Of a DNA stretch of 64,000 nucleotides, positions 2,488 through 42,752 are shown piece after piece. The translations under genes were made by a program, and so were the position numbers. The stretch comes from a virus, in the IMG/VR virus record IMGVR_UViG_3300018878_000100. One strand, given 5' to 3'. The notes under the pieces were generated by a model that made no database searches, was not told where the DNA came from, and was given only the letters and a program-made list of their open reading frames with translations. Position 1 is the first letter of the stretch. Every line of letters starts with the position of its first letter.

Positions 2488-5400
2488 ATGGCAAAAAATC
2501 TTAATGTTAGTTTAGCTTTTACTGCGAATACGAATGAGGCTATTGCCGCAATTAAAAATTTGCAAAAAGAGCTTAATGGATTGGCTACTGGTTCTGCATT
2601 GAAAAATAGTGGAATTTCACAAATTACACCTGAAATTCAAAGAGCTATGACCGCAGCAGGAGAGTTATAGGCTAAACTAGAAGCGGCTACAAATTTAAAA
2701 ACAGGAAAATTAGATTTAGGTCAATTTTCTGATTCCTTAAAAAAAGGCGGAGTTTCTCTTCAGCAATATGCTAATCAATTAAATGCTCTTGGTCCGGCCG
2801 GTCGTCAAGCATTTACGAATTTAGCTTAGTCTGTTTTATAGGCAGAAGCTCCTTTAATTAGATGCAGTCAAAGGGTTAGAGAGCTTGGTACTACATTAGC
2901 AAATACTGCAAGATGGCAGTTATCTTCTAGTATTTTACATGGTTTTATGGGAACCGTATAGTCTGCTTATGGATATGCTCAAGATTTAAATAAATCTTTA
3001 AATGATATTCGCATTGTTACTGGTGCTAGTGTTGCTGAAATGGATGCATTTGCAGCTAAGGCAAATAAGGCAGCGCGGGCATTAAGTACAACAACTAATG
3101 AATATGCTAAAGCTTCTTTAATCTATTTCCAATAGGGTGATACTCAATCTGAAGCTATGCAAAAAGCTGCTGTTACTGCAAAAATGGCAAATGTAACTGG
3201 ACAAAGCGCAGATGTTGTTTCTAATCAATTAACTGCTATTTGGAATAATTTTAACAAAGAAGGCGATGTTGCTTATGAACATTATGCCGATGTATTAACA
3301 AAATTAGGTGCTGCAACTGCGTCTAGCACTGATGAAATTGCTGGTGGATTAGAGAAATTTGCCGGTATTGCAGATACTATTGGTTTGAGTTATGAATATG
3401 CTGCATCTGCTTTGGCAACAATTACTGCAACATCTCGTGAAAGTGAAGAAGTTGTTGGTACAGCATTAAAAACAATCTTTGCACGTATTCAAGGTTTAAA
3501 GCAAGGAGACACCCTTGAAGATGGTACTACTTTAAATAAATACTCTGAAGCTTTGCAAAAAGTCGGTATTAGTATTTTTGACCAAACTGGCGAATTGAAG
3601 AATATGGATAGTATTCTTGAAGAAATGGCCGCAAAATGGGTAACTTTAAATAAAGACCAATAGTTGGCATTGGCTCAAACTGTTGCTGGTGTTCGTCAAT
3701 ATAACCAAATGGTTACTTTGATGGATAATTGGGATTTTATGGAAGAAAATCTTGCAACTGCTGGCGCAGCGGATGGAGAACTTAATAAACAAGCTGAGAT
3801 TTATGCTGAAAGCTGGGAGGCTGCTCGAGACAGAGTAACAGCAGCAGCAGAAAATTTATATACTAAAATTTTAGATGACGATTTTTTCATTGGTTTTTTA
3901 GATGGTTTAAGCCATGTTATTGATGGAGTAGGTAGTTTAGTTGATGCTTTTGGAGGTTTAGGTGGCGTTCTAGCAACTATTGGAGCTATTGCCACAAAAG
4001 TTTTCCATAAAGAAATTGCTTAGGGTTTAAGAAATGCTGCTTATAGTATTAAGCAATTTACTCCAGCGGGTAAAAAAGAACATGAAAAGACTAAAGAAGA
4101 TGCTCTTGAGGGTATTCGTAACTTAAAATCTAATATGCGTGGTCGTGAAGGCGATGCAGAAAATGCTTCTCTTGATAGAGAAATTCGTATGCAAGAATAG
4201 CTACGTGCAGCTGCTGGTCGCGTAACTGAAGAAGAGCTTAAATAGCTTCAAGTTCAAATGGATTTAGTACGAGCAATGGATAAGAGAGCAATTGCTGCTG
4301 GTAAAGCAGCGGATGCAGCAAGGGAAGAAGTTGAAGACGCTCGAGATTTAGCAAAAGCCTATGAGAAAATTGAGGCTAGAGATAAGGCCAAGGAAGATTT
4401 TTAGAAGAAACATTAGGGTGAAGAAAATCAAAAACGAAATGACGCAATATCTCAAGCCTTTGACGATGTAATAGATTATGGAGCAAATCACAGAAAGACA
4501 AAACATCATCGATTTGGTGAGTAGGGAGATTATATTAATTAGCAATATGCTTAGGCTCGGTAGAGGGTAGTAGATTCTGGTGAAACAGTAACAGCTGATG
4601 CTGTTCGAGGAGAATTTTTAGCTGGATTAAGAGAGGCGGCCGACAGTAGAGATGAAATGGCGAAAGCTATTTTTGATAAAGTTAAAGCTGCTGGAGAAGA
4701 AGCTGCTTAGGCATATGGTGAAGCTATGAAGTCTGAGCTAGATGAAGCAATGAGAGATGCTGAAAGATAGGCTAGCGAAAAAATTGAAAATATTGGAAAA
4801 GCAGTGGATAAAGGTGCTATGACGGAAGTCCGTGCCAAAGATTTAAGAGAAACTGCTTCTAAACTTTCAGTAAAAACTAAAGACGATAATGGTAATGAAG
4901 TTTATAAAACTGCCGATACTGGATTAGGTAAAGTATAGGATACATTAAAACAAAAGCTTGCTGCGACAGCTGCTGAAGCTAAAGAATTATAGGCTGCATT
5001 AGCTGCTTTGGGTAAATCTGATAGTGTATTAGATGGTAGAATTGCAGATTTAGAAAATATGACACAAGAATTAAATAGTACTACTGCTAGTGCTGAACGT
5101 CTTGAAGAAATTTTAGGATAGCTATCTAGTGAAGAGGAAGGCGGTATTACTTCAGTTCTTGAAGATTAGGCTCAAATGTTGACAGTGGATGCAGCAGGAA
5201 CGCCTTATGGTGGAGAAACAAGCGCAGATGCAAAAACTCGTGGAGGAGAAGATTATCTTCGTTCTAAGCAAGCTGCTTAGAAACAAATGGATAGCGAAAA
5301 CGCTAATTTAAATGTTGGCGGTAGTGAAGAAGGTTTAAATGAATCTTTTAATAAGAGCGGTTTAACAGATTGGGCCGATTAGATTACTAATACTACTGAT

Positions 5401-8400
5401 TTAATTATGGGACTAGGCTCTGCAATCAGTTCAGTATAGGGAGCTATTGATGTTTTTAATAATCCTGATGCAACAGCTTGGGATAAAATTAGTGCAGTAA
5501 TCAGTGTTGTAATCGGTATTTTACCAGTTGCATCAACTTTAATGACAATGTTTGGTACTACTGCAGCAACAGCAGGTGCAACTGCGAGTGCGGGTATGAC
5601 CGCTGCGTTAGGTTCAATTGGTTGGATTATTTTAGCAGTAACAGCATTGATTGCAATTTTTATTGCTTTAGGTTCTGCGATAGCAGCAAATTCTCCAGAA
5701 GGATAGCTGAAGAGTGCACAAGAAGCCACTGAAAAAACTGCACAAGCGGCACAAAATGCAAAAAGTGCTTATGAAGAATTGTTAGCTACTATCAATAGAT
5801 ATGATAGTGCAAAAGAATCGTTAGAAGGATTAGCTAAGGGTACCGAGGAATATACGGAAGCTCTCATGGAGGCTAATGCTGCGGCAAGAGAATTAATTGA
5901 TACTTATGAATTAACAAGTGATTAGTTCCATGTGGATGAAAATGGTTTAATTCAAATTGATGAAAATGCTCTTTAGACAAAGAAAGATGAACATCGTGAA
6001 AGAGTTGAAAAAACTTCTAGTGCATTAACAGGCGCTTAGAAATATGAGAATGAAAAAGAAGACGATGTTACTATTTCTAATATTCGAAAAGAAGCTAATA
6101 AGGATTCCATGTATTATGGGTCTGATTATTAGAATTATTTAATCTCTGATACTAATATTGAAACTGTATTAGCTGCGGCCAGAAATGCAGAAGGTGGTTC
6201 TGATGCTTATTTCGCTGAAGGTGAAAAAAATATTGCAGCAACAATGGGATGGGACCCAGATGCATTAACAACTTATTAGCAAGATTTTATAAATGCATTA
6301 ATGGAAAATTCCGCGGCCCTATCTGAAGCAAATGCAGCAATTTTAGCAAACGCAGCGGCCAATGAAGCTGCTACAAAAGCATAGTTGGCGCAAAATTTGA
6401 GTGATGAAACTGCATTTTAGGACAGTGAATATCAAGATGAGTTATTAGAAGCTGCATTAAATACTCAAGGGACTGAGGAATCAGAAGCTCAAGATAAGCT
6501 TGACGGAATGACTCAAGACCAAATGTATGATGCTTATGCTGAAATGATGGGCTATACCAATAATGGTATAGGTACTTGGTTAGATGGTAAGCAAGAGTTC
6601 TTGGATGCTGACGGAAATCCAATTGAGTTAACTCCAGAGCAAGTAGAAGCTCAAATGCGTGAAATGTACGCGCAAGAGGGTATGGAAGAAAATGCATTAA
6701 ATCTTGTAGATACTATGAATCAAGTAATGGCACGAGCTGATGAAAATAAAGGTGTTATTAGTACTGCTATTACTGGAGATACAGAAAAATTAACTATTGG
6801 TTAGTAGGGTATGAGTGCAGATGAAGTTGCTGCTATGGTTACTGATGAAGAAGCTCAAGCGATGGGCTTTGAAAGTGCGGCAGCTTTTGGAGAATCATTT
6901 GCTTCTGCTACAGAGAGCTTTGCTGGTGAATGGCAATCTTTAATGGGAAATTATGTTGACTCCGTTTCTGATTAGATGCAAACCATGTTTGATAATGGAG
7001 AGTTAGATAATCTAACTCTTGGACAGTCAGAAAATTTAGCAAATGCTTTTGAAACTGCATATGCAACTAGTGGATAGGCTGGTATGGATGTATTGGCTAA
7101 GATGTTTACTGATGCTGGTGAATATTCTGACGAATTTGCAAATGCTCTTGGAACTATAGACTGGAGCACTGCTACCCCAGAGACTTTACAAGACGCATTG
7201 GATGCCGCGGGTGTTGCTACTCATTATACTGCTGATGAATTAAATAATTTAATTAATGTAATGAACGAAGGAGCTATGGGCTTCGAAAATGCTGCAAATA
7301 AATATAAAACATTATCTGAGATTGTTGATTCATTAAAATCTGGTGATACTATTACAGCTGAGCAATTTAAAGAATTGGGTCCAGGTATGGAAGATTATTT
7401 CATGCGAATGGCTGATGGTACTTATAAATTAATTGGTGATGCAGAAGCTTTCTATGCTGCTGTTAATGAATAGTAGTTGGAAGGTTTTGAAAATACAATT
7501 ACTGCAAAAACTGAAGATAATGCAGAAATTGAAAATGTATTAAATCATGATATTAGCTCTTTGGGTAAGATGGATAGTACTACAATGGGTGGTCATGTTT
7601 ACACTGGAAATGGACAATTTGTTTAGAATACTGATGTAGCTAATGCTCAATTAAATTTCTTAGAGTAGACTGGCTATGACCCCGCTCAAGTTCAACAATG
7701 GCGTGATGATATGTAGGCTGGCACTTTAGATGTTAAAGCATTGACAACTGCTGTGAATGAACAAACAACGTCTCTTGGCGGAGCAGCAGCTGCAGAAGAA
7801 TATTTAACACAATAGCTGGATGCTAATAATACAGAAATTGAACAAAGTAAAGAGGCTATTGCATCTACGGCTACATCTTTAGATGAATTAGATTAGATGT
7901 TGCAAGATGGTAAGATTTCTGTAGAAGCATATGATAAAGCTGCCTAGGGTGCTTTTGAAAAAGAAGTTGAAGCTGAGGGTTTCGACACTGAAGAACTTAA
8001 TAATTATGTTGATGCATTAATTGAATCTGGTAAATTCTTAGAAGAAAATCGACAAGAAGCTCAAAAATTTGCTTTAGCTCAGTATCGGATGGAAAAAGGA
8101 TGCACTGAGTTGGTTGAAAGTTATGAAGATTGGGACAAAGTTTTATCAGATAATGAAGCTAGTTTAAAAGATATTAATAAAGTTATGCCAAAAGTAAATT
8201 CTATGTTACAAGATATGATGGACTTATCTGATGAAGAATTTGCTTTATTACCAGATAATTTTGCTCAAGATAATTGGAATTTAATTCAAGACGTTTATAA
8301 TGAAGTTGATGGAGCTTATGAAGCTTTAAGAGCAAAAATAACAGAAGAAATTGTTATGAAGGTTGTACTTGATGAATCTGCTTAGGGTCAAGTTATGACA

Positions 8401-11400
8401 GAAGTTAATAATTTTTTAGCCAATGTTAATTTGGATGATATTGAAGTTGGAGCAACTTTAGATTCCACTGGATTTGCAGCTGGTTTATAGGGATTATTGG
8501 ATTCTGGCGCAGTAACTGTAGAACAAATGAATGACATTTTATCAGGTATTGGTTATGAACCAATTATTGAATATGAACAAGTAGCAGTTAGTTCTTTTGC
8601 CCGTCAAAGCCAATAGGGTTATATTCAAGTTGCAGGTGTTGATGGAAGCATTGAATATGTGCCAATTACATCTGACATGGATATTAGTGGTGAACAATAT
8701 GTATATGTTCCAAAAATCGGTAGTTCTAAATATAAAGGCGGCGGTGGTGGTGTCGCTGATGCTAAAGCCAATAAAGGCGGTGGCGGAGGAGGCGGTGGCG
8801 GCTCCAAGCCAAAGAAAGCCGACAAAGTAAAGAAAACTGATGTTGTTGACCGATATAAAGAAATTGACGATAAACTTGATGACATTGCAGATAAAATGGA
8901 TGATGCTTCTAAGGCTGCTGACCGTCTATGGGGTCCTGCACGTTTAAAGCAAATGAAAAAAGTTAATGATGCTTTAGAAGAAGAAATTGATGCATTAAAG
9001 AAAAAACGAAAAGAAGCACAAGATAATCTTGATATTGATAAAAAAGCTTTGAAAGATACTATTAGTGCAGAAGCAGGAGTTACAATTACAGACGCAGATT
9101 TTGACGCAGAAGGCAATTTCACTAGATATGATGAAGTTTTAACTGATTTATATAATGAAATTGATGCTGCTATAGAAGCGGCCAATGCTGATGGTAATGC
9201 TGATGAAGATGAACAAGAAAAAATTGATAAAATTCAAGAGCGTATTGATAAAGTAAAAGAAGCAATTGACCAATATGATGAAACTCGTGAATTAATTGAA
9301 GATTTAGACAATGATATTCAAGATAAAATTTACGAATGGCAAGATAACAATTATGAACAATTAAATTATAAACTTGAATATGAAATTGAAATTAATGATT
9401 CTGAACTTGAATTATTAGAATATTATATGGGCAAAGCTGAAGGTAATATTTATAAAACTGCAGAAGCTTTTGGATATTTAGCTGGACAAGCCGATATTTA
9501 TACTGATAATTTAAAGCATCAAGAAGAATATGTTAATGAATTAACTAGGGCTTATTATGCTGGTGAAATTTCTATGGATGCATATAAGGAAGGTTTGCGT
9601 GAAGCTCAAAGTGCAACCATTGAAAACTTATAGGCATTAGAAGAACAAAAGAAAGCTATGCAAGAGTATTATGGTGAAGTAATGGATATGGCTCTTGAAG
9701 AAATTTCTTTGTATACAGATGAAATGGAAGAGTTAAATTCTGTTCTCGACCATTATTCTAATATTCTTGAATTAGTTGGTAAGCAAGAAGATTATGCAAC
9801 CAAGGGTAAAGTTTTACAATCCAAAGCCGCAAATCTTCGCAATGAAATGCAAGTCCAACAAAAACTTTATGAAAAGTCTAATGCCGAAGCTGAAGATTGG
9901 GCTGCTAAAATGGCAACAGCAATTGAAGGTTCTAATGAGTATGAAACTTATAAAAAGAATTGGATTGCGGCCCAAGAGGCAGCTAATGAAGCTCAAGAAA
10001 ATATGTTAAGTAAGACTGAAGAGTGGGCTGAAGCAATGAAGGCAGTTATTGAAAATGAATTAGCTGGATTAGCTAAGACCATGGAAGAGTCTTTAACGGG
10101 CGGAACTTCATTTGATGAGTTATTAACTTCTATGGAGCGCCGCAGTAGTCTACAAGAAGAATATCTAACAACTACAAATCAAATTTATGAAACTAATAAA
10201 TTGATGCGTCAAGCTCAACAAGAAATTGATAAAACTACTAACTCTGTAGCAAAGCGAAAGTTGGCTAATTTCATTAATGAAACAGAATAGATGCAAAATC
10301 AAACTGAGTTAAGTCAATATGAGTTAGATATCCAGTAGGCCAAGTATGATTTACTTTTGGCTGAAATTGCATTAGAGGAAGCTCAAAGTGCTAAATCTAC
10401 TGTTCGCTTACAGCGCGATAGTGAAGGCAATTTTGGTTATGTTTATACTGCGGACCAGTCTGCGGTCGGTGAGGCCGAACAAGAATTGGCAGATAAGCAA
10501 AATGCTCTTTATAATCTTGGATTAGAAGGTGCTAATGATTATAGTCAAAAGTATGCTGAAACCATGCAAGAAGCTCAAGATGCTATTACTGAATTAACAG
10601 AAATGTGGATGAATGGTGAAATTGAGTCTGAAGAAGAATATCAAAGACGCAAGGCTGAAATTCAGGATTATTATTATGAGAAATTAAAGCAATATTCAAG
10701 CTTATATCAAGTAGCATTAACTACTGATAGTAATGTTATCAAAGATGCTTGGAGTACTGACTTTAGTGATATGATGTATAAGACTGAAGATTGGAAAGTC
10801 GCAACTGATGATTACTTTGCCGGAGCTGCTGAAAGCATGAAGACCTGGGCTGAAGTTTGTGGAACCGTTCTTGAGGAATCTGGTCTTGATGACGTAAGTA
10901 AAAAGGTTGAAGAAATCAATACCAAGAGTGAGAATTTGAAAAATACTCTAATTGGTGAAGATGGCGAGAGCGGCGTTGTTGGTGCAATGATGTCTGAAGT
11001 TGAAGCTGCGGGTAAGTTAAGTGAAGCTTATATTGGCATTCAAAATCAAATTGATGAAGTTATTAAGAAGTATGAAGAAATGATGGGTGTAATTAATGAA
11101 GATTATACCAATGAAAATACTCCTGAAGTTACTCCTGCGATTACTCCAGACCCTGAACCCGAGCCAGAAGAACCAGTTCCTGAACCAGAGCCTGAACCTG
11201 AGGAGGCCACTGTTCCTGAATTAAAGGTTGGTTCTACAGTTACCGTTAAGAAGAGCGCAAGCAGATGGGCTACTGGAGAAGGTATTTGGAATCCAGTTAA
11301 GGGCAACAATTTCAAAGTTAAGAAAATTAATGGAGAAAAAGTTCTTATTGGAGACCCTTCAGGTCCTAACTATAGTGCTTCTGGCATTACAGGTTGGATT

Positions 11401-11763
11401 AAGAAAACTGACCTAGAGGGCTTTGCTACTGGTGGCTACACTGGAGACTGGGAAGGTTCTTATGGTAAGTTAGCAATGTTACACCAAAAAGAATTGGTGC
11501 TAAATGCAAATGATACTGAAAACTTCTTGCAAGCAATGGATATTCTTGATAAGATTGTTTCTGCTATTGATTTGTATAGTATGAATTCTCAGCTTGGTGG
11601 AGCTTTATCTAGTCCGTCTCTTGGAAATATGGGCGGTGGAGATGTCCTTGAACAACAAGTACATATTGAAGCTAGTTTCCCAGGAGTACAAGATAGAAAC
11701 GAAATCGAAGAAGCATTTAATACTCTTATCAATAGAGCATCTCAATATGCTAATCGTAAATAA
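2488..11763 (+). CDS. Tail tape measure protein of the TP901 family, about 3091 aa, read through about 51 in-frame TAG codons
   Basis: An AGGAGA site precedes ATG 2488. Frame 1 is continuous to TAA 11761-11763 and is interrupted only by TAG. Track ORFs 2488.., 3157.., 3664.., 6508.., 7084.., 8089.., 8659.., 9658.. and 10357.. are all in this frame. The TP901-type core is recognisable at about 3100-3500 (…VTAKMANVTGQSADVVSNQLTAIWNNF…LTKLGAATASSTDEIAGGLEKFAGIADTIGLSYEYAASALATITATSRESEEVVGTALKTIFARIQGL). A hydrophobic, Ala/Gly-rich segment lies at about 5400-5700. Long coiled-coil regions are present. A Gly-rich linker lies at 8740-8810 and a PEPEPE linker at 11150-11215. An SH3-like segment follows (VGSTVTVKKSASRWATGEGIWNPVKGNNFKVKKINGEKVLIGD…GWIKKTDLEG). 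The protein ends with the motif typical of Gram-positive phage tape measure proteins (GYTGDWEGSYGKLAMLHQKELVLNANDTENFL). Confidence 0.9.
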
Positions 11764-11769
11764 ATTTTT

Positions 11770-11805
11770 GGGTAGGTTATAGAAATATAACCTACCCTTT
11801 TCTTT
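11770..11805 (+). terminator. Rho-independent terminator
   Basis: GGGTAGGTTAT pairs with ATAACCTACCC and a T-rich run follows. Confidence 0.65.
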
Positions 11806-11825
11806 ATTTGGTCTAATTAAAAAAA

Positions 11826-11854
11826 TTGACTTTTCACAAATTTTATAGTATAAT
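11826..11854 (+). promoter_or_regulatory. Sigma-A consensus promoter (TTGACT, 17 nt, TATAAT)
   Basis: TTGACT lies at 11826-11831 and TATAAT at 11849-11854 with a 17-nt spacer. The site is upstream of the ribosome-binding site and ATG 11888. Confidence 0.55.
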
Positions 11855-11887
11855 AGATTAAGGAGAGAAAGGAGAGTTTGAGTATTT

Positions 11888-14800
11888 ATGGCAATTGAAG
11901 TTGATAATCTATTTCAAGCACTAGATATTATTTTAGATTAGCGCTTGCAAAATATGAATTATGATAAAACCGATGTTTGTATTATTACTGATGATAGAGA
12001 TGCTAAAAATGGTCACTATTGGGTTTCTCCAAACAATGGTGAAACTAGATATGAAGCATTTAGTGAGTCAGAAGAATATAAAAAAGGTGAGAGTGTCAGA
12101 GTTTCTATTTTAAATGGAGATTATACTCAAAAGAAATTTATCGTAGGTAAATATGTAGTAGATGATGCTATTACTCCCATTACTTATGTTTCTCCTCTAG
12201 ATACGGTTATTGATGTTACTGGAAATATGATTAGTGAAGCCAAAGCTAATGCTCAATATGGTTTAATTTCAAATGGTACAGTATCAGAAATTCCGATTTG
12301 GAGTGCGGATTTGGCTTTAGACCAATCTTATAAAGATTTACAAGCCAGTGGCATTTATAATACTATTAGTTTATCTGCTAATTTTAAAACTTTATTAGAT
12401 AACTATGATATGCGTTCAGGCTCTTTTGGATTGCGCCTAGATGTATATGTAAAATTAAATCCAAGTAGTGAAAAATATATTGTTCGCTCTGTGTATATGG
12501 ATAGTTCTGAAATGTTTGGTAATCCATATGCTTTTACACTATATTCTCCCCAGAGTAGAAAATATGATTTAAGTCAGCTTGGTGCCGTTGAAAAATTAAG
12601 TTTATGGTTTTATCAACGAGGAGATTTTTCTTATTATGATTCAAATCAAAGACAAACAGTTAATATTGATTATAAAAAAATTCCAAGAGAAAATATTTTA
12701 TTGAGAGATATTAAAATTGGATTTGGTAGCGATTTGACTATTGTTCAAGATAATACAATTCAAGCTTTTACAACCAATTCTTCTACTTATAGATTAATTG
12801 TTACTAAAGCAGATAATGAAAAAGGATTAGGATTTTTGTGGTATAACAAAGATGAAAACAATCAATATTTGGGATACAGCGATGGCATTGTTGATTTTGA
12901 ATATAAGGATGGAAATGTTGTTTATACCAATAAGCTTGATAAAAATTAGAATAAAGTAACTCAAGATGTTCTTGATGAAAAGAAACGAGCTATTTTAGAA
13001 TTTGCTAAGGATGATAAGGATAATGTTATCCTAGTCTCTGTATTAGATGATGATGGATATGAAATTTCTTTTGATGATTTAAAAATCACTATTGACGATG
13101 CTTTAATCATTTTAGCAAATGAGGTTAGTAATTTAAAACTCCAATTACAAATTCAATATGACAATGAAGAAATTGGTTTTAATGAGTTCATAGCTCGTAA
13201 ATCAGATATTGATAATTATGAGCGAGTTAAACGGACTTATCTTAATACTAATTATTCTAATGAAGAGCTTGAGCAAGCTATTGAGAGCCAGCGTAGTGCA
13301 GAATTGGAGGGTTTAAGATTACAATTCGAAGCTGGTGCTTTTGGCGAAGGCGATGAAGCAAATTAGAGATATAATAAAGAAATAGCAAAAGTTAATGATT
13401 TATATAACAATAAGCGTGCTGAATTAAGAAATTATAGAGTTCAAAAAACCTATGTTCTTTAGAAGAAATAGCAAGATGTAATGATACAAAAAGTCGCTCC
13501 ATATGATGAGTTTAAATATATGGAAGAAAGCGAAACAGATGCTCGTTTAACCGCACAAGCCGGCAAAGAAGGCGTTCCTTCTGATGCTAAGAGTTTAAAA
13601 TTATCTGCAGATTTGGCTGAAGTTAAGCCTTTAATGACTAAAACTTTTGATTTAGTTACCAAAGATTTAACTGCGGTGCTCCGTCAAATGCGCGACCGCA
13701 CGAACTCTATCGCAGATATCACTACGGCTTTAAATGCATTACTATTAACTCCTACCAAGGATGCCGCAGGACAAATCCACGGTACGGAAAGAAATAACAT
13801 TCTTGCTTGGTATGATTTTACTGATGCAATGAGAGAAGAAATGTATGGTGTTTATACAGAACTTCTAGAATATAATTATTTACATTAGGAAAATTTAAAG
13901 AAACTTCCTGCAGAGCAAGAAACTGATGCTATCCTTAGAGAGAAAATGGGAGAGCATTTACAAGCTTGGAATAAATCTGATTTATATTTAAATATTCAAA
14001 ATAGTTTTAAGTCTTCTTTAATTCCAATGATAACTAACTTTTTTACAAATGCTCAAACTACAATTGATGCAAATTATAGTGGTTATCAAGGTATTTATGA
14101 TACTTATAAAACTAAGGCTGATAAAATAATTGTTCAAATTAATGAGAATTTAAATAAAATGTGGGCAATTGTTGATGACAATAATGCTATTATGGTAGAC
14201 ATGAGACCTTATAATAATGGCCGCGTATATTTAGATTATAATAAAAAAGATTTATCTAACTATGATAATCGTTATGCAATCTATTGGTATAGATATGAGC
14301 CTGGATACACAAGTGATGATAGATTATATCCAACTGAATGGAAACGTTTAACGACAAAAGCTGATTTCGGTATTGATGAGTCTGATGAATTAGTATATAA
14401 CTTTGGATTACCAATTTATGATGATTTTGTTTTAAGAGATGGACAATACTATTTTTCTGATAAGGTTCAAGGAACCAATGTCTCTGCAATTCGCATGATG
14501 GATGGACAGAGAGTAAATGAAAAATATAAAATTGTTTTATTCTATAATCACGAAATGTATGAAAGTAATGAAGTAGAATTTACTAATTTAGATGATGTAG
14601 TTGACCCAACCACAGCAGATAAGAATGATGCTATTGTTATTACTCACGGCACGAATTCACAAGATACTTACCAGAGTTATGGTTTAAGTAATTTCTTGGT
14701 AAATGCGGCCGACGCAAGTAAGGTGCGAGAATTATCTGTGCATTATGAAGGTATTCTTGCAGGAGATGAAGCTTTAGCTAATACACAAGTATATTGGTAT

Positions 14801-17800
14801 ATTCCAAATACTGCTACTATGTTAACTTGCGATGATAAGCATTTAACTGAAACTTTAGGTTTTTATTCTGATTTAAATATTTCAGACGGAGAAAAACCTG
14901 ATTATAGTAGAAATGGTTATACTTGTTATTATAAAACAATTGGTGTAGAAACAGTGCAAATTACAGATGACCCAGAAACAGAAGAGGTTGAATCTGGAGA
15001 AAAAGTTACTGCAAAAGCAAGTGATTTAACATTCACTTATAAGATTAAAGATTATTATTTATCTACCTCAAGCCGCAATGAAATTTTCTGTAAGGTAGTA
15101 AAGGATGAATATACATTTGAGACAAGTATTGTTTTGGCATTTACGTCTCTTGGAACCAGTGGTACTGATTATACATTGGCAATTACTCCTTCTACAACTC
15201 AAATTGCAACTTATGCTTCTGGATATTTGCCATTAAATATTGTTTTATATGATTATAAAAATAATACTATTCCTATGACTACAAATTTATTATCGACAGT
15301 AAAAGATGGAGCATCTAACTTTAAGTTAGGTTGGGAAGGACCACACTCCTATGATTTTGCTACATTATCTGATGCCGATGATAATATCGTTGGAGCGAAT
15401 ATTCAATTAACAACTTAGCCATAGGATAATAATAGTTTAATTTATGGTGTTTTAAAAGCAACTGTTGATTGCCCTATCGAATACACTGTAAATACAGAAG
15501 AGGATGAACAAGAAAATAAGGAAAACGCTAATAAAACAGCAAGTAGAAATGCAACTTTAACTTCTTATTATCCAATTCCATACAGTGCTGGTAATTACTA
15601 TATTGAAGGTGCAACAACTATTGTTTATGATAGTATGGGAAGTAATCCTTCTTATTATAAAGACCCATATAAGATTTTTACTTGTAATACAAATGAAAAC
15701 CTTGCAGACAAGAAGATTATTCGTGCAGGTGTGGAATCTGATAAGCCAAAATATGATATCCTGTGGCGAATTGTTTATTATAAAAAAGATAAAGATGGTA
15801 AGGTTGTAAAACTAGATAAAAATATCCATGCTGATTATAATATTTGTCGTAGTTATATGCCCACTTTAAATGAGAAAAATGGTTTAAATGCATCAAATAT
15901 GTACATGGGCAATATGGATTGTTGGTGCGCAGTTGAGTGTTGGTTAAAAGACCTTGAAACTGCTACTTATGATACTAAATATTCTTTAATTTGGGTTCAA
16001 CCTATTTTTATCTTACAAAATCGCTATCCGTCTCCAATGCTGAACTCTTGGGATGGAAGCTTGACAATTGACAAAAAAAATGGTACAATATTATCATCAT
16101 TAGTAGGTGCTGGTCGAAAAACTCGTGATAATACTTTTGAAGGTGTACTCATGGGAGATATCGAAGGCAGTGCCGGAATCGTAAATGCTGGTAATAAATC
16201 TGGTTTAGGTATTTATGGTTTTAATGATGGCGCTCAAAGTTTTGGTTTTAATGTCGATGGTACAGGTTTTATTGGTAAATCTGGTAGAGGTAGAATTTTA
16301 TTTAATGGTAATGAAGGTATTATTCAAAGCGCTTCTTATACAGCAAATGAAGATAAACCTTATGGTATGAAACTTGACTTTGATGATGGTTGGCTTGAAA
16401 TGCGAGGCGGCCTAGAGTATGATAATGATGATTGGGCAAATGAGGTTGTCAATCATTATAAGGAAATCCTTGCCGCAAAAGTATATAAAGTTGATGAAAA
16501 TACTCAAGCATTAGTAGCAACTACAAAATATATTATTGATAGAGATATAATGGATTTGGATGTTCAAGAAGCATTGCTTGAAAAGATTAAGTATGATGCT
16601 GCTCATCAAGCAAATATGTATATTGAGGGTCGAGCCATTGCCAAAAAAGCTAAAGATAACGGAGAGATAACTCAAGAAGAATATCAAAAGTTATTTGATG
16701 AGCTTTATGCTAAAGAGCAAGAGAAAAAATACTATGCAATGACTACATTAAAAACTGCTAGTATTGGAAGAGGTTTCTCTATTAATGACAAAGATTATGA
16801 ATTAACCATAGAACAATATAATGCTATTTTAAATGAATTAGATGAATATATTTTAGCAGAAACTTATGATGGTGAATTAAAAACTGATGCTGAAGGTAGA
16901 AAATTTAATTATAAGAGTAGATATGGTACTCTTTCTAAAGCTTTACAAGAGTTTGAGGCTCAAGGTCATAAAGTTCTTGGAGATTCAGAAGAAGCTAGTG
17001 ATGTTACTTTAACTGAAGTTGAGGTTACAAATCAAAGTCATATTCGTTTAGATGTTAAATCTCCTTATTTCTATATTATTAGCGAATAGGGTAAACGTAT
17101 TTTAAATATTGGTGATGGCACTGGATTTGACTTTGAAGATTATCCATATTTACAATATTCAATTGAAAAGTTCCAGCGAGATAAAGATGGAACAATTCTT
17201 TTAGTTAATTTAACTGATGAAACTGGTTCAACTATTAAAATTGAAGATATAGATGAGGCTAAAGAATTATTAAATTCTGAATGTTCAATTTTAAGAAGTG
17301 ATGCTTATAATCGTTTTTAGATAAAAAAGAGCATTACTCAAAAAGATTATGATAATATTTGTTTAGATATTGAGGATTATCGTACTAAGAAATTAGCATA
17401 TTTAAATACTTGGACAGAAGAAAATGCTGAAACTTTTATTGATAAGACTTATGAAGTTGAATATATTCAAAAAACTGGTTTTATTGGTACTGGTACACAA
17501 AAAACGAATTGGCTTGAACCTTATGGAAGAAACCTTTCTAAAGGTTATTATTTAAAATCTAATGATTTTACTTATACTGCTTTTAGTAAAGAGGATGGTA
17601 TTGCAAGCGGTCAAGGTTCAGGCTTTTTACTTGATTTAACAAATGGACACATTAATGCAGCAAATTTAAGCATTGCTTCAAAAAATGTATTTATTGATTC
17701 TGGTAAAAATGCTGACCCATTTTTTATTATTAAAGATAATGATGGATGTAATTTAATTTATGCTGGACAATAGGATTTTTATATTCAATCTCATACATAT

Positions 17801-19531
17801 TCAAGATATGCTCTTGGAGATAGGCTAACTGATGATAATGGTAAACAATATTATTATCCAGGTATGAAAATTGATACTGATGGAAATAATTTTTTATTTG
17901 ATATTAGAGGTAATTATCAATCAATAGTAAATATTAATAAGGATGAATTTTTCCTGCAAACTGATAATTATAAAATTCGAGAATATATTACTATAACAAA
18001 GTGTTATAATCAAGATTATAGTATGAGTTTTGATATACAGGTCGGTAAAGCTGAAAAAGGACATATTATTTATACTGCACCAAATTTTAATAAAAAAAGT
18101 GAAAATGTTACGACTGAAGAACATACTTCTATTACTTTATATGAAAGTAAAAAAATTGATGGAATAATGTGGTATAAAATTAACACTGAGCAATGGATAC
18201 CAGCATTATCTTTTGAATCGATTGAGGTAAATGATGAAGGTATTGGTACTGGTATAACTTATTTAAACCAAATTATTTATAGCGATTCTGATTATAATTC
18301 TATTAAAGTTGGTTTTACCAAAGATTCTCATGTTGCAGGTGTTAATATTTAGGCAACTAGAGCAGTTGATGGAGTAGAGTGGTATGCTATTGAAGTACTT
18401 GAAGTTGAACATTGGCTACCTGATTATTCTATTAAAACTGGTTCTTATGGTTCTGGTATTAGATTGGATTTGTAGGGTGGCTATATTGATGCTTATGATT
18501 TTATTATTCGAGGTGAATCTAGCACAGACCCCACTGCAGGTTCTTATTTATTATTAGATAGTTAGACTCCGCAATTTGTAGTTCATTTAACTACTCCAGA
18601 CAGTGATGGTATAATTGATTTAGATTTAATTAAAATTTCTCCAGATGAATTTTATTTACATTCTGCAAATTGGTTAGAAACTACTACTCAAGTCACCACT
18701 TAGCGGACAGCTAAGATGGACGGCGGCTGGAATATTAGAAGCGGTCCTGGTATGGATTATTCTATTATCGGTTATTCTTCAAGTGGAAAAAGAGTGGTTG
18801 TATATGAAAAGCAGGGAGATTGGTACTGTATCGGAGAAGACTAGTGGATTTGGTATGAAGGTTTAACTGATTTTCAAGAAGGTGGAACCGCAAATAAAAC
18901 TTATGGCACTGGCATGGAAATTGATTTAAATGATGGTCGTATTACTGCATACAATGCCAATAATGCGGGTAAAGAATTATTAATTAATTCATTACATGAT
19001 ACATATCCAATTTAGCTAGGAGAAATTGGAGATTATAATTTCCAAATTGGTTGGGATGGTAGTTTAAAGGGCGGTAGTATTTATGGTTGGAGTATTGATG
19101 CAAGTGGTACTGCTACGTTTAATCGTTTGAATGCTAATGGTGGTGTTTTAAGTTGGATGTCTATCGGCAGTGCTAATATTTATGATGTTGATATTACTTC
19201 TGGCACAATTGCAGGTATGGACTTCACTACTGGAGGCATTACTGCAGGAGATTGGAATTTTAGTTCTAATGGATTAAGTCATAATGGAAAAGCAATGGAA
19301 AAGAAAACTTATGATTCAGTGCGCTATATGTCTTTATGGACAAAAAAAATACCAGTAAGTGTTAGCGGTAGTTGCTCAATCGAAATTGATGGAGCTACTT
19401 ATTATGGCTCATGCTCTGCTAGTGGAAATACTACTGAAGATGTAGGTTATAGAATTGGTTATGTAAAAATGATTTATAATGGATATGGAGAAGAAGGTCA
19501 AGAGTCTGCAGTTGTATTTACACCAGCATAA
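11888..19531 (+). CDS. Giant tail-tip or baseplate structural protein of about 2547 aa, read through about 17 TAG codons. It may combine distal-tail (Dit-like) and tail-associated functions; that is not proven.
   Basis: An AGGAGAG site precedes ATG 11888. Frame 2 is open to TAA 19529-19531. Every interrupting stop is TAG (11939, 12947, about 13364, 13460, 13466, 13886, 15416, 15422, 17087, 17318, 17771, 18350, 18472, 18553, 18700, 18841 and 19012). Track ORFs 11945.., 13481.., 13946.., 15635.., 17864.. and 19127.. share this frame. In about 33% GC DNA, 2547 codons free of TAA and TGA cannot be non-coding. Confidence 0.6.
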
Positions 19532-19540
19532 GGAGGATTT

Positions 19541-19909
19541 ATGACAAATTTAGAAATTTTAAATTTTAATGAATTATATAAACAAAATTTTCAAGAATTT
19601 GATGAATTATTACCAGCAAAAATTTTGTTTTATATTTATAAAAATTTATCATTAATTGAAATATCATTACATCATATTGAAAATACTAGAAATAGTATTA
19701 TTCGTAAATATGGTTTAATTGATGAATCAAAAGATACTATTCAAATTCCTCCAGAATTAGTAAATGAAGCTAATAAGGAATTAGAAGAAGTTTTAAAAAT
19801 GGAATAGGAAATTAATTTTTTTTTAATTCCTCTTTCATGGTTTGATAATATCAATCTTAATCCAAAGCATATGAAATTATTATGGATTATGATTGATGAA
19901 AATAAATAA
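19541..19909 (+). CDS. Small 122-aa protein, paralog 1 of a tandem pair, with one TAG readthrough at 19805-19807
   Basis: A GGAGG site precedes ATG 19541 and the frame ends at TAA 19907-19909. It aligns with the downstream paralog over its full length, including the C-terminal ...HMKLLWIMIDENK against ...QMEALMFMID. Confidence 0.55.
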
Positions 19910-19923
19910 AGGAGAAAAAGGTT

Positions 19924-20292
19924 ATGACTATGACAAACTTTGAAATTTACAATATCGCTAAAGCTATGAGTGACGCCTTCCAGGATGGCACTCAGTATCT
20001 ACCCGTTAAAGTAAATTTTTTCATTCAGAAGAATAAAGCTACTTTAATGTCTTTAGCACAAGATATTGATAATTCTCGTATTGAGATTGTTAAGAATTAT
20101 GGTACTATGGATGAAGAATCCAATCAGTTTATTGTACCAGAAGATAAGATTGAAGCTGCTAACGCAGAGTTGATGGACCTGTTTAATATTGAGCAGGAAG
20201 TTGATATTCGTAAGGTAAGCATTGATTCTTTCCCCGAAGATATTAATCTAACCACTGCTCAAATGGAAGCTTTAATGTTTATGATTGACTAA
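19924..20292 (+). CDS. Small 122-aa protein, paralog 2 of the tandem pair, with no TAG
   Basis: The ORF is intact with a GGAGAAAAAGG ribosome-binding site. Its length is identical to the upstream gene (369 nt) and the sequences are clearly similar. Confidence 0.6.
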   Translation: MTMTNFEIYNIAKAMSDAFQDGTQYLPVKVNFFIQKNKATLMSLAQDIDNSRIEIVKNYGTMDEESNQFIVPEDKIEAANAELMDLFNIEQEVDIRKVSIDSFPEDINLTTAQMEALMFMID

Positions 20293-20300
20293 TAAATATT

Positions 20301-20326
20301 AGGCCAGGTAAATTCTTACCTGGCCT
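20301..20326 (+). terminator. Stem-loop, a possible weak terminator
   Basis: AGGCCAGGTAA pairs with TTACCTGGCCT across an ATTC loop. No T-run follows. Confidence 0.35.
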
Positions 20327-20353
20327 AACTTATTGCAGAGAGAAAGGAGATTA

Positions 20354-23317
20354 ATGATGTCAACTACTAAGTTATACCCTCCTTATGTGGATGCCGCAGT
20401 TCCTGCGCAGTTGGTTCCCGATGAAAGTACATCAGAAACAACTGTAACACTTACTATTCCATTTCAATTAAATAAGGCAGTAAGTTGGGTAGATTTAAAA
20501 TCAAAAAATAATATCGCTTTGATTTTGAAAACGGTATCAACAGGAAAAGTTTTATTAGATTGTTATAAAGGAAACGTTTTAACTCATTATGAACCTACTG
20601 GAACACCTGCCGCAGAATTTGAAATTCCTAAAACTACTTTTAATCCTGTTGCAGGATAGTTTTATAAAGCTCAAATCGCTTTCATAGATTCTGATGATAC
20701 TATTGGATATTTTTCAGATGTGACTATTGTAAAATTTACTGCAATTCCTGTTATAGGTATTGCCGATTTAGCAAGTGGAACAAATGCTGCTCAATATGTT
20801 TATACAGGTACATTTTCAACTACTGATGTTACTGAAAAAGTATACTCATATGAATTTAATATTTATGATTGTGAAACTGGTATTTTGCATGACACAAGCG
20901 GAGTTATGATTCATAATAGTAGCACAGATGTTGAACGAGGAAAATCTTTTGACACTTGGACATCTTATAAAACTTTAATTAATGAGCGTCAATATTCTAT
21001 ATGTTATAAAATCACTACTATTAATGGTTTAGTGATGGAAACTCCAGCTTATGGAATAATGGCAGTTGAAACTTTAGATTTAGTTTCTAGAAACACAGAA
21101 TTTATTGCAACATTATATAGTGATGATGCTTATATTCATGTTCATATTATGCCAAAAGATATTGATGCAAATATTAAAGCAATTACTGGTAATTTTATTT
21201 TAGTTAGAGCATCCAGTGAAGATGGATTTGGTAGCTGGAATGAAATTTATCGTTTCACTTTGATTAATAACTATCCTTTAATGACACTGTGGAAAGATTT
21301 TACGGTGCAACAAGGATATTCATATAAATATGCTGTACAAGCCTATAATTCTAAAGGTGTTTATTCTAATCGATTAGAATGTAAATATTATGCTAGTGAA
21401 TTTGATGAGCGCAATGATGACATTAACCGTTAGAATTGGAACGCAGAAGCAAAAGACCCTATTGAAAATACTAACTTAAATTGGAATTATTTACAAGAAA
21501 TTGATGGGTCTCCAACTCAAAGCGGATTGCCAGTAGATTTTGAAGATGCTTTTCTTTATGATGGAAAACGCCAATTGAGAATTAGATATAATCCAAAAAT
21601 TAGTTCTTTTAAATCAACTGTGCTTGAAACTAAAATGGATACTATTGGAGGTAAATATCCTTTTATTTTCCGTAACGGAAATGTTGAATATAAAGAATTC
21701 CCAATTTCTGGTTTAATTACAATGATTAGCGATGAAAATGCTTTATTTATGGAGTATTCCAAAGAGAATCCAAAAGCTCGTCAGTACAGTACACATCCGC
21801 CATATGGTAATGATAATGCGGATTGGTGGGTCAGCCGAACTGGTATGACGGAGTATGAAGTTCGTAAGACCCAAGAAAAAGAGTTAAGTGGTTCTCCCAC
21901 AGCATTAACCGCTAGCAACTTCCGCAAAGAGCGTGAATTTAAAATGGAAGTGTTGGATTGGTTAACAAATGGACAACCAAAGCTATTCCGTTCTCCAAGT
22001 GAAGGTAATTTTATTGTTCGTTTAATGAATACATCATTAACTCCAAATGATTAGCTTGGACGATTATTACATACTTTCCAATGTACTGCATATGAAATTG
22101 CGGAATGTAATTATGAAAATTTGGAAAAATATAAATTTATTCATGCTCTCGATACTAGTTATTAGGAATTGAAATTTAAAATGCTTGATTGCAATAATAC
22201 TTTTGCTGACATTCATAATAGACAAATTATTATTGAGGGTGGTGCTTATTACTTTGCAGTAATAGACCAATGGAGTTATTTGGCATTGAGAATTACTTAT
22301 GTAAATGGTACATCACAAGTTATTGATGTTGGTAACTCTACTGGACAATATTTGTTTGACAGAGAAGCATTAAAAAATAACCCAATTGTTTCAGTAACTT
22401 ATCAAGAAGGTGCGCCAGATGTTGGTAGTAAAATTCTTTATGGATATTATGATACATCAGATATTGCTTTCTCTTTGATTGCAAGTGTTACAAGAGAAAC
22501 AGTAGTAGACCAAATTATCGGTCATCCGCAAACTTCTTACCGTATAGATAGTTTTAAAATTAATTATGTTCCAACTATTTTAAATGGCATTGGATATAGA
22601 GACTTGGCTACAGATTTACAAAAGGTTTATGGCGAAGATGAAATTCCTCGTTGTACTCTTGGTAAATTTTATTACTTAAAAGCTGAACCCAGAGAGATTA
22701 CTTTCGTTTATAAAAAAGAAAATAAATATTATGAAACTTCAAAATGTGATTATGAGGTTCGTCAATGGGATGATACTTATATTTATAAAGTTTTCGAAGA
22801 AAGTGATGGCACTTGGGAACCTACGAATCAATATAGTGGACGTCCTTCAAATAATATCTTATTACCAGAGCCAAGTTATCTCATTAAATTAAATGCAAAA
22901 CCCAATAATGGTATTGACCCTGCTCAAGAAGAGTTTGTGGATTTAAGTTTAAAGGGCGGTAGCGGAGGTAATGCTCCTATTACTACTGGACGATATGAAC
23001 TTTATTTTGATTTGGATAAAGTAGAAAGTTTATATATTGGCTCAGGAGTTGTATGTGAAATTTGTTATAATTTAAATACAATTCATTATGAAGCTGAAGA
23101 TAATATTCAATATAGTGAATTGGTTGATAGATATAATACTTGGCAAAATCAGCAACGTCAATATAAGAGTATGTTAAAAGCTGGATATAGTAGATTTAGT
23201 GCTGATGTCGAACGCGCTCGTATGAATATGGAACAAAGTTATCATTAGTATTTAAATCAGTTAGAATATATTCTAAATAAGTTGCAAATGGATGGTGAGA
23301 CTTATTATGCTTTATGA
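20354..23317 (+). CDS. Large tail or baseplate structural protein of about 987 aa, read through 5 TAG codons and ending in TGA
   Basis: An AAAGGAGA site precedes ATG 20354. Frame 2 is continuous through track ORFs 20333.., 20720.., 21527.. and 22169.., with TAG at 20657, 21431, 22052, 22160 and 23246. The TGA stop at 23315-23317 overlaps the next gene's ATG. Confidence 0.6.
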
Positions 23318-27484: not shown

Positions 27485-27549
27485 TATGCGTAATTTCTTT
27501 CTTTTAAGAAATTAAGATATAATATACTTTTAAGAAAGGAGAGAATATT

Positions 27550-29031: not shown

Positions 29032-29045
29032 GGAGGACCTGAGAT

Positions 29046-30563: not shown

Positions 30564-30580
30564 GAAAGGGGAAAACTATA

Positions 30581-32302: not shown

Positions 32303-32367
32303 TTTGAGGACAAAAGGTATTAAGAAGATTATTTCGATTTTTAATTAAAAATAGAGGATAATCTAAT

Positions 32368-32405
32368 AGGTGGGAAGAAGATTATTCTTCTCACCTATTT
32401 TTTTG
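32368..32405 (+). terminator. Rho-independent terminator
   Basis: AGGTGGGAAGAAG pairs with TTCTTCTCACCT, with one G-U pair. The sequence ATTTTTTTGTTT follows. Confidence 0.6.
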
Positions 32406-32435
32406 TTTATAAAGGAAAGAAAGGAGTTTAAATAA

Positions 32436-40487: not shown

Positions 40488-40503
40488 TAAAGGAGGATAA
40501 AAA

Positions 40504-40713
40504 ATGACTAAACAAGTTTTATATACTTACTTAGGTACTAATGGTACTATTTGTTCTCCTGTGCATTTAGAAGATGTTTATTATATTAGAAAATATCGTC
40601 TAACTGCAGACCAGGGTAAGCGTTTGACTTGCGATGGCAAGACTTACCATGATACCGTAGTAATTCCAGAAGCTGACCTTCCTCTTTGGAAAGAAGTTGC
40701 TGGACAGAAATAA
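40504..40713 (+). CDS. Hypothetical 69-aa protein
   Basis: An AAAGGAGG site precedes the ATG and the ORF ends in TAA. Confidence 0.5.
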   Translation: MTKQVLYTYLGTNGTICSPVHLEDVYYIRKYRLTADQGKRLTCDGKTYHDTVVIPEADLPLWKEVAGQK

Positions 40714-40747
40714 TTTAATTATTTAATTAAATTATCAAAATAATAGA

Positions 40748-40776
40748 GGGAGAGAGTAATCTCTCCCTCGCAAATT
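40748..40776 (+). terminator. Stem-loop, a possible terminator
   Basis: GAGGGAGAG pairs with CTCTCCCTC across a GTAAT loop. The following T-run is weak. Confidence 0.35.
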
Positions 40777-40799
40777 TAAAGAAAGGATGATATTTAGAA

Positions 40800-42731: not shown

Positions 42732-42752
42732 TAACTTGAAAGGAGAGGTAAA

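Follow-up and report, generated by a model that had tools for sequence, protein, structure and literature searches.

What kind of coding unit lies behind a 7.6-kb frame that holds 17 TAG codons and neither TAA nor TGA? The frame follows the tape measure gene in the 64,000-nucleotide stretch of viral DNA studied here (IMG/VR record IMGVR_UViG_3300018878_000100, referred to as the window) and could represent one giant gene, a series of smaller genes or a gene in which TAG acts as a leaky stop. With high confidence we attribute it to a gut phage in which TAG encodes glutamine and interpret it as a single tail protein gene, very large but otherwise ordinary. In agreement with a preliminary description, our recount yielded a single frame from ATG 11888 to TAA 19529-19531, i.e., 2547 sense codons and the terminal TAA (7644 nt in total), with in-frame TAGs (n = 17) at positions 11939, 12947, 13364, 13460, 13469, 13886, 15416, 15422, 17087, 17318, 17771, 18350, 18473, 18563, 18701, 18842 and 19013. 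The location downstream of the tape measure gene was likewise confirmed, a 124-nt intergenic spacer separating the two genes. From an upstream in-frame TGA (11879-11881) to the TAA at 19529 the frame is free of TAA and TGA, while the two remaining frames contain 103 and 375 of these codons in the same stretch. Given the base composition, a frame of 2547 codons should contain about 165 TAA and TGA codons (ln P(0) = -170), and the open frame is therefore not due to chance. The features of the region are compiled in Table 1.

Table 1. Features of the giant gene and its surroundings (window coordinates).
Feature	Position	Strand	Remarks
Tape measure protein gene	2488..11763	+	3091 aa, 50 in-frame TAGs, TAA end; orthologues match PF10145 PhageMin_Tail
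Intrinsic-terminator-like hairpin	11770..11797	+	12 bp stem, 4-nt loop, then T-run; directly 3' of tape measure stop
Sigma-70/sigma-A-type promoter-like site	11826..11854	+	TTGACT-17-TATAAT, 11/12 matches; best score in 11600-20400
Ribosome-binding region AAGGAGAGAAAGGAGAG	11860..11876	+	GAGAGAAAGGAG invariant in alignment of related loci
Giant tail protein gene	11888..19531	+	2547 codons + TAA, 17 TAG (Gln) codons, predicted product 288.6 kDa
Conserved N-terminal module, aa 1-340	11888..12907	+	Predicted: helix 3-21, OB-fold barrel ~27-88, CBM-like jelly-roll sandwich ~124-294
First in-frame TAG (codon 18)	11939..11941	+	Aligned with TAG, AAG, GAG, GAA, CGA in five orthologues; K/Q/E in 43/59 homologues
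Second in-frame TAG (codon 354)	12947..12949	+	TGG/TGG/GGG in P0003/P0010/P0017; W in 12, G in 5, gap in 40 homologues
Most conserved core, aa 1215-1515	15530..16432	+	Predicted beta domain, then Gly-rich beta-meander (NRYPSPMLNSWDGSL...GKSGRGRILFNGNEGIIQSASY)
Bacterial SH3 (SH3_3) domain, aa 2282-2319	18731..18844	+	Pfam PF08239, E 7.5e-07, 29.7 bits vs. cut-off 27; variable C-terminal third
Two paralogous 122-aa genes	19541-19909 and 19924-20292 (19541..20292)	+	phrog_1401 matches

In principle, several genes (Dit, Tal, fibre and others) might appear fused merely through disregard of TAG stops, or the frame might stem from an assembly or sequencing artefact. Standard-code callers do indeed shred such genes, as exemplified by a 1175-aa gene that is broken into eight ORFs in the JGI calls for locus L049. 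On the other hand, the TAGs are not followed by ribosome-binding sites or start codons. For the TAGs at 11939 and 12947 this had been noted before and holds true on our reading of the sequence: an in-frame ATG four codons past the first lacks a Shine-Dalgarno sequence, and none is present near the second. In addition, every TAG is crossed by continuous homologue alignments, neither Pfam nor fold searches revealed a Sipho_tail/Dit signal, and independent assemblies contain the same TAGs or identical sequence. Sequencing error was rejected as the source of the TAGs, as the independent assembly L052 (ERZ27248446), in which the giant gene is called as 2547 aa, is 100% identical in the first 468 nt including TAG codon 18. 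In L001, which harbors a 93% identical orthologue, nine TAGs (its codons 18, 354, 525, 528, 667, 1182, 1184, 1739 and 1816) line up with nine TAGs of the window. Furthermore, in relatives using the standard code (L016, L020, L021, L022, L024, L027, L033 and L048) this protein is specified by a single ORF of 1474-2210 codons without interruption. As judged from these one-ORF relatives together with inter-TAG constraint and the comparison of independent assemblies, an artefactual fusion of separate genes is already refuted, and we consider its probability practically nil.

The conservation as one gene extends further. TGA-recoded relatives feature 11-19 in-frame TGAs in place of TAGs, and the best 120 of 188 homologues range from 1589 to 2660 aa with no split versions among them. 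Of the earlier suggestion of "one giant tail-tip polyprotein", the single giant product is therefore retained, being encoded by one conserved ORF also in the stop-free standard-code relatives, while the term polyprotein is not, given that split orthologues are lacking, the homologues listed all comprising at least 1589 aa, and that no protease family was found among the domain-search matches of the giant protein. Gene order is also kept in the relatives: the tape measure gene and the giant gene are succeeded mostly by one or two genes for proteins of ~120-125 aa and by two large genes (~760-990 aa). Immediately 3' of the giant gene, L001-L006 have one or two genes for 120-125 aa, and L007 has a gene for 253 aa. 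The two 122-aa paralogues in the window may be regarded as candidates for assembly chaperones. When Dit and Tal were sought in the downstream proteins of 987 and 885 aa (Pfam, PHROGs, PDB), only a weak match to phrog_1887 ("tail protein") was obtained. By sequence, the giant protein represents a widespread, uncharacterised family with conserved N-terminal two thirds and a variable C-terminus. Beyond SH3_3, no match to curated families was found in Pfam, PHROGs, NCBIfam or a PDB sequence search: the PHROGs scan of the giant protein retrieved no family, NCBIfam yielded nothing meaningful for four homologues, and the profile search of PDB sequences returned only spurious helical-bundle matches (E > 0.01). 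A tblastn search against 50,697 INPHARED phage records was also without a match for the giant protein.

With regard to the meaning of TAG, the preliminary description had correctly recognized a recoded codon; the phage of the window uses genetic code 15, in which TAG specifies glutamine. Reading TAG as sense raises the ORF content of the plus strand of the window from 47 to 60 kb, and a total of 126 in-frame TAGs is found across the ORFs of the window, residing in structural genes. TAG accounts for 10-41% of Gln positions in tail genes and for none in NrdD, dUTPase and the neighboring minus-strand genes, such that the window exhibits the skew of recoded codons toward late or structural genes that is documented for genetic code 15 (bioRxiv 10.1101/2021.08.26.457843; PMC9523058; PMC10607447). 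In six orthologous genes, columns aligned to TAG contain Gln in 26% and TAG in 20% of cases, and the corresponding values for columns of true CAA/CAG are 35 and 10%. Gln-or-TAG partners thus amount to 47% for TAG vs. 45% for true CAA/CAG columns, while Lys, Glu, Tyr and Trp columns in the same genes mostly hold their own residue (46-81%). TAG exchanges with CAA/CAG like a Gln codon and therefore behaves as Gln. Individual positions of the giant gene are consistent with this assignment: homologues are called Q at TAG codon 667 in 50 of 59 cases, at codon 2376 in 28 of 59, and at codons 525/528 in 14/16 of the 18 homologues having those columns. The standard-code relatives are too distant for the residues they carry at the TAG positions to be informative. 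Comparison with three orthologues revealed an excess of third-position substitutions in all sizeable inter-TAG segments up to the end of the gene; vs. P0001, differences at codon positions 1/2/3 amount to 7/1/22, 17/11/71, 22/8/60 and 10/6/35 by segment. These comparisons establish, at the level of sequence, a single ORF with TAG as Gln and coding constraint over its full length, which is kept as one gene in phages of three different genetic codes. The cause of the TAG-rich frame is thus known biology, i.e., genetic code 15. Ribosomes would insert Gln at each of the 17 TAGs and terminate at the TAA at 19529. A suppressor tRNA, on which late expression would depend, is probably encoded elsewhere in the genome. 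What speaks against the present interpretation is that in the window and in L001, L004, L006, L049, L050 and L052, covering ~80 kb of a ~130-158-kb genome, ARAGORN detected no tRNA. An Rfam scan of the window revealed nothing, and searches of the window and of six flanking or related loci, within the same ~80 kb, brought to light neither a release factor nor any other gene associated with a code change.

Because the phage translates TAG as Gln, the 17 TAGs are sense codons and no device for nested products. The alternative, raised at the outset, is that graded termination at TAG yields nested N-terminal products, e.g., one of 353 aa ending at codon 354, in addition to the full-length protein, so that the recoded codon would serve a regulatory purpose. 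As suppression always falls short of 100%, truncated chains are bound to appear to some extent, and with 17 TAGs a readthrough of 95% per codon would leave only 42% full-length product; moreover, TAG 354 is located just beyond the conserved N-terminal module, which ends at ~aa 340. Against this, the first termination would occur at codon 18 and release a peptide of 17 aa instead of 353 aa. Both TAGs that had been proposed to delimit a Dit-sized product of about 353 aa are sense codons in relatives (AAG/GAG/GAA for codon 18, TGG/GGG for codon 354), the N-terminal 345 aa are not Dit-like, and the TAG at codon 354 sits in an insertion (aa ~340-535) found only in close relatives. In general, TAG positions drift as synonymous sites do: the orthologues in five further assemblies have 14-34 in-frame TAGs each, mostly at different positions, and the standard-code relatives, from which TAGs are absent, make the full-length protein only. 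In terms of its +4 and -1 context, TAG is similar to CAA/CAG, with +4 frequencies after TAG of.29 (A),.17 (C),.38 (G) and.17 (T) and comparable ones after CAA/CAG. Neither a position-conserved stop nor a conserved stimulatory context was found in the giant gene. The tape measure gene with its 50 TAGs demands near-complete suppression; to give a useful yield, it needs a readthrough of ~98% or better at each codon, so that not much scope remains for termination by design. We therefore find no support for partial termination as a designed mechanism and judge nested products very improbable.

Under the reading of TAG as Gln, the giant gene appears to have its own conserved terminator, promoter and ribosome-binding site after the tape measure gene. 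The terminator-like hairpin is kept in seven related loci with compensatory stem changes, e.g., from GGGTAGG/CCTACCC to GGGCAGA/TCTGCCC. In the promoter-like site, relatives with only 34-57% protein identity show no change in either hexamer or in the extended TTTATnnTATAATAGA. The case for a promoter rests on this conservation because promoter-like sites in the whole region (61 found vs. 53.8 expected) are not above chance; the -10 block alone, taken as a repeated motif, was no commoner than chance either. The site has a bearing on the proposal that the TAGs mainly act as a timing gate, in which mRNA made from a host-type promoter would be translated beyond codon 18 only once the phage suppressor tRNA has accumulated, so that the protein would be confined to late infection. 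Such a model has been put forward for recoded phages as a whole (bioRxiv 10.1101/2021.08.26.457843). The conserved promoter-like site just upstream, the position of the first TAG already at codon 18 and the concentration of TAGs in structural genes with their absence from nucleotide-metabolism genes are all in line with it. Yet standard-code relatives manage without a gate, and the pattern is not uniform, as a TAG-free block of the plus-strand array (five of six ORFs, including one for 2683 aa) adjoins the tail genes. A timing role is compatible with one gene in which TAG specifies Gln and hence no true rival to it; we regard it as possible, if rather doubtful. An extended version, in which incomplete suppression is exploited such that, on promoter-driven mRNA gated at codon 18, residual termination at TAG 354 would free an OB-fold plus CBM-like fragment for tail-tip assembly beside the 289-kDa protein, seems hardly credible.

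Based on its predicted features, the product would be a virion protein of 2547 aa (289 kDa) of the tail-tip or fibre type, made by a large phage (~130-158 kb) with an SPbeta-like structural module. A position at the tail tip or within a fibre is suggested, and a trimeric fibre-like assembly may be envisaged. The structure of the N-terminal part was modeled on a 97%-identical segment of P0001 and that of the core on the exact, TAG-free segment of the window. The N-terminal helix, OB-fold and CBM-like jelly roll probably anchor the protein; the conserved middle would comprise helical and beta-rich regions and the Gly-rich beta-meander core. Homologues end in SH3_3 or Peptidase_S74 (the latter in P0035, P0113 and many others), while Pfam searches detected no Peptidase_S74 in the window protein, which possesses SH3_3 plus two extra SH3-like inserts. 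The rapidly varying C-terminus may bind the host, via a cell-wall-binding SH3_3 domain in the present case, with Peptidase_S74 serving as a fibre chaperone in relatives.

The giant gene does not reveal a new mechanism: TAG recoding is already known biology, and it is the giant tail protein family that is uncharacterised. The main value of the finding lies in annotation. Code 15 is required for the translation of a common phage lineage of the gut or rumen. The standard code shreds its tape measure gene and the 289-kDa tail protein into fragments, as in the JGI calls of L049. Exact copies of the window dUTPase and of a YomO-like protein were each found on more than 20 contigs. Furthermore, a large giant tail protein family is defined that is present in standard-code, TAG-recoded and TGA-recoded phages and therefore offers a convenient marker for the spread of code changes within one phage group.

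When compared with established systems, the first segment of the giant gene resembles the Dit of siphophages only in its position right after the tape measure gene and in its approximate hypothetical size (353 aa). Dit is the usual gene following the tape measure gene in siphophages. An example of this position is SPbeta yomH, annotated as "tail family protein" (PMC8270828). Dit identity was rejected for the N-terminal segment, in which Pfam and fold searches found no Sipho_tail family or Dit fold and for which a helix, an OB-fold and a CBM-like jelly roll are predicted. Programmed readthrough as in Qbeta A1 or retroviral gag-pol also involves in-frame stops inside a longer frame. In these cases, one position-conserved stop with defined context sets a fixed stoichiometry, whereas the giant gene contains 17 drifting TAGs that are absent from standard-code relatives.

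The central spike or needle proteins T4 gp5, P2 gpV, phi92 gp138 and phiKZ gp164 are ten times smaller than the window protein. Compared with spikes of the gp5/gpV type, its predicted OB-fold and beta-meander are separated by ~1100 aa that comprise jelly-roll, helical and beta-rich regions; sequence homology is not detectable, and the OB-fold matches them no better than it matches ribosomal S17. Long tail fibres or spikes with Peptidase_S74 as intramolecular, autoproteolytic chaperone at the C-terminus (endosialidase, T5 pb1 type) share with the giant protein the junction of a conserved N-terminal with a variable C-terminal part, a layout typical of receptor-binding proteins, and P0035, P0113 and other homologues terminate in Peptidase_S74, which in the window protein is replaced by the SH3-type modules. 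The closest parallel in coding is provided by code 15 phages (crAss-like, Lak, Garnet/Topaz clades, phAss-1/Phassvirus), in which TAGs also cluster in late or structural genes and align with Gln, genes end in TAA or TGA, and near relatives follow the standard or a TGA-recoded code (bioRxiv 10.1101/2021.08.26.457843; PMC9523058; PMC10607447). What sets the lineage of the window apart from these phages is its SPbeta-like module, apparent from Pfam matches to YonD_N, YonB, YomW, YomV_2nd, YomU_Tube and YomO in L052, and since the giant gene has no INPHARED protein similarity, the lineage appears distinct from phAss-1 and the crAss-like phages.

In the frame that opens downstream of the tape measure gene, the run of 2547 codons with 17 TAGs was borne out, down to the positions of those TAGs. 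A scan of the whole frame found neither TAA nor TGA, against about 165 expected from composition (ln P(0) = -170), and the open frame is therefore real; the two alternative frames of the stretch contain 103 and 375 such codons. An independent assembly that covers the structural-side flank and the giant gene (L052) is completely identical to the window over the first 468 nt of this gene, including the TAG at codon 18, and its version of the gene is called as 2547 aa. The TAGs are thus not errors, and a sequencing-error reading of them is ruled out. The initial observation was correct and is explained by TAG-to-Gln recoding, a known phenomenon, in this phage lineage.

Features of the giant gene neighborhood and the flanking loci (window positions unless a locus is named)
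Feature	Position	Strand	Remarks
Structural genes upstream of window	L052 1-10540		SPbeta-derived Pfam matches
Tape measure gene	2488-11763	+	3091 aa, 50 in-frame TAGs; orthologues match PF10145 PhageMin_Tail
Spacer between tape measure and giant genes	11764-11887		124 nt
GC-rich hairpin and T-run	11770-11797		in spacer
Promoter-like site TTGACT-17-TATAAT	11826-11854		in spacer
Ribosome-binding region AAGGAGAGAAAGGAGAG			in spacer, ahead of giant gene
Giant gene	ATG 11888 to TAA 19529-19531	+	2547 sense codons, 17 in-frame TAGs
Two paralogous 122-aa genes	19541-19909, 19924-20292	+	phrog_1401; directly 3' of giant gene
Replication side	L049/L050 1-10000		PolIII-alpha, PIF1 helicase, NrdD/NrdG

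The entire window is TAG-recoded: its ORFs together hold 126 in-frame TAGs, and the ORF content of the plus strand amounts to 60 kb with TAG as sense vs. 47 kb otherwise. Genes of the tail region write 10-41% of their Gln positions as TAG, while NrdD, dUTPase and several further genes contain none. DNA of giant-gene orthologues was recovered in five cases (protein identity 93% to about 38%), all of which carry 14-34 in-frame TAGs, mostly at sites not shared among the six genes, and end on TAA or TGA. In a codon-level alignment with these orthologues, TAG is faced by CAA (21%), TAG (20%), AAA (9%) and CAG (5.5%); by amino acid, Gln-or-TAG partners make up 47% at TAG columns vs. 45% at genuine CAA/CAG columns, and columns of Lys, Glu, Tyr and Trp pair mostly with their own residue (46-81%). 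Among 59 aligned homologous proteins, with residues taken as called, Q predominates at TAG codons 667 (50/59) and 2376 (28/59) and occupies codons 525 and 528 in 14 and 16, respectively, of the 18 homologues possessing those columns. These alignments show that TAG is read as glutamine in this phage, in agreement with code 15 as described in gut phages (bioRxiv 10.1101/2021.08.26.457843; PMC9523058; PMC10607447).

Amid the TAG-rich plus strand array, TAG is absent from five of six ORFs of the block 27523-43340 (+), especially in 32436-40487, and GC content there is 0.34-0.39 vs. 0.30-0.33 in the tail genes that immediately precede it. The 2683-aa ORF of the block contains 67 Gln codons, not one of them TAG (P ~6e-8 given ~22% TAG use), and a BspA-type LRR_5 domain lies at its aa 2517-2578; tblastn matches were all weak and fell on hypothetical proteins from phages of the gut and of Bacteroides. 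The block may have been acquired recently from a standard-code source; alternatively, it may be a gene needing expression before the code switch.

A single giant product, one of two readings offered in the preliminary description, proved right. Comparison with three orthologues revealed a third-position excess of substitutions in each sizeable inter-TAG segment (for the homologue P0001, 7/1/22, 1/0/8, 17/11/71, 22/8/60 and 10/6/35 differences at codon positions 1/2/3), and purifying selection on the frame therefore persists beyond all 17 TAGs. Database searching yielded 188 homologues, of which the 120 listed all measure 1589-2660 aa, and the conserved core, used to scan IMG/VR, picked up 41 loci. 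Eight of these (L016, L020, L021, L022, L024, L027, L033, L048) have the homologous gene as one standard-code ORF of 1474-2210 codons without interruption, four (L029, L030, L032, L037) have it with 11-19 in-frame TGAs, and in most others it is broken by 6 to 50 in-frame TAGs. The same protein is therefore produced as a single chain under three codes; separate genes are thereby excluded, and designed truncation at TAGs need not be invoked.

The other reading, partial termination at TAG giving nested products, among them a Dit-sized one ending at codon 354, found no support. Termination, if any, would strike first at codon 18, which is a sense codon in orthologues (AAG/GAG/GAA/CGA), as is codon 354 (TGG/TGG/GGG); the latter lies within an insertion (aa about 340-535) missing from 40 of the 59 homologues. 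The bases on either side of TAG are similar to those around CAA/CAG. For the tape measure gene with its 50 TAGs, ~98% or better readthrough per codon was computed to be needed for 36% full-length product, from which we infer near-complete suppression during expression of these genes. Some level of truncated by-products must be present, with no sign that they are functional.

The sole match of the single-chain giant protein in curated libraries is SH3_3 at aa 2282-2319. Its family, without a match in PHROGs, NCBIfam, PDB sequences and INPHARED, is uncharacterised and, across L008-L048, is found in phages with the standard code, with recoded TAG and with recoded TGA, i.e., under three genetic codes. 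The first 345 aa, modelled by AlphaFold on the P0001 segment (pLDDT 72.7), comprise a helix, a barrel of the OB-fold type and a jelly-roll sandwich; among BFVD entries they match minor tail, tail fibre and J-fibre proteins. Homologues terminate in SH3_3 or Peptidase_S74, as do fibre/spike receptor-binding proteins. We read the protein as a giant tail-tip or fibre protein that combines a conserved part for anchoring with a C-terminus that varies and binds the host. The window variant has an insert of ~150 aa at 17900-18400 (aa about 2030-2180) that lacks a counterpart in the 59 homologues, TAG codon 2155 falling in an all-gap column, and that holds two more SH3-like-looking repeats (…MWYKINTEQWIP…, …VEWYAIEVLEVEHWLP…).

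Assignment of the upstream gene as tape measure, also proposed earlier, was confirmed by the Pfam match of its orthologues, which span 2906-3301 aa. At ~0.15 nm per tape measure residue, the tail is estimated at roughly 460 nm, provided that its length is set by the entire chain. In comparison with its equivalents in the related loci L001-L007, conservation of the spacer exceeds that of the proteins on both sides; the hairpin stem shows compensatory changes, and the -35 and -10 elements with their 17-nt spacing, the ribosome-binding site and GAGAGAAAGGAG are invariant. This pattern indicates a conserved terminator and promoter within the tail module, and the giant gene is probably the first of a separate transcription unit. 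In most relatives its direct downstream neighbours are one or two genes of ~120-125 aa; the paralogous pair in the window possibly encodes dedicated chaperones.

Contigs of this lineage measure 104-158 kb, and about 80 kb, i.e., roughly half of the genome, could be searched: neither the window nor the flanking and related loci yielded a tRNA, and the window has no Rfam family. The predicted suppressor tRNA would be encoded in the other half of the genome. In public annotations the genes of this phage are partly broken up. At the equivalent of window 51878-55405, compared between L049 and L050, standard-code calls in the JGI assembly (L049) cut a gene of 1175 aa into eight small ORFs, and an ENA call leaves it intact. 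Upstream genes in L052 match the Pfam families YonD_N, YonB, YomW, YomV_2nd, YomU_Tube and YomO, named after proteins of the siphovirus SPbeta, whose tail measures 320 nm (PMC8270828). The phage is distantly related to SPbeta-like siphophages and TAG-recoded.
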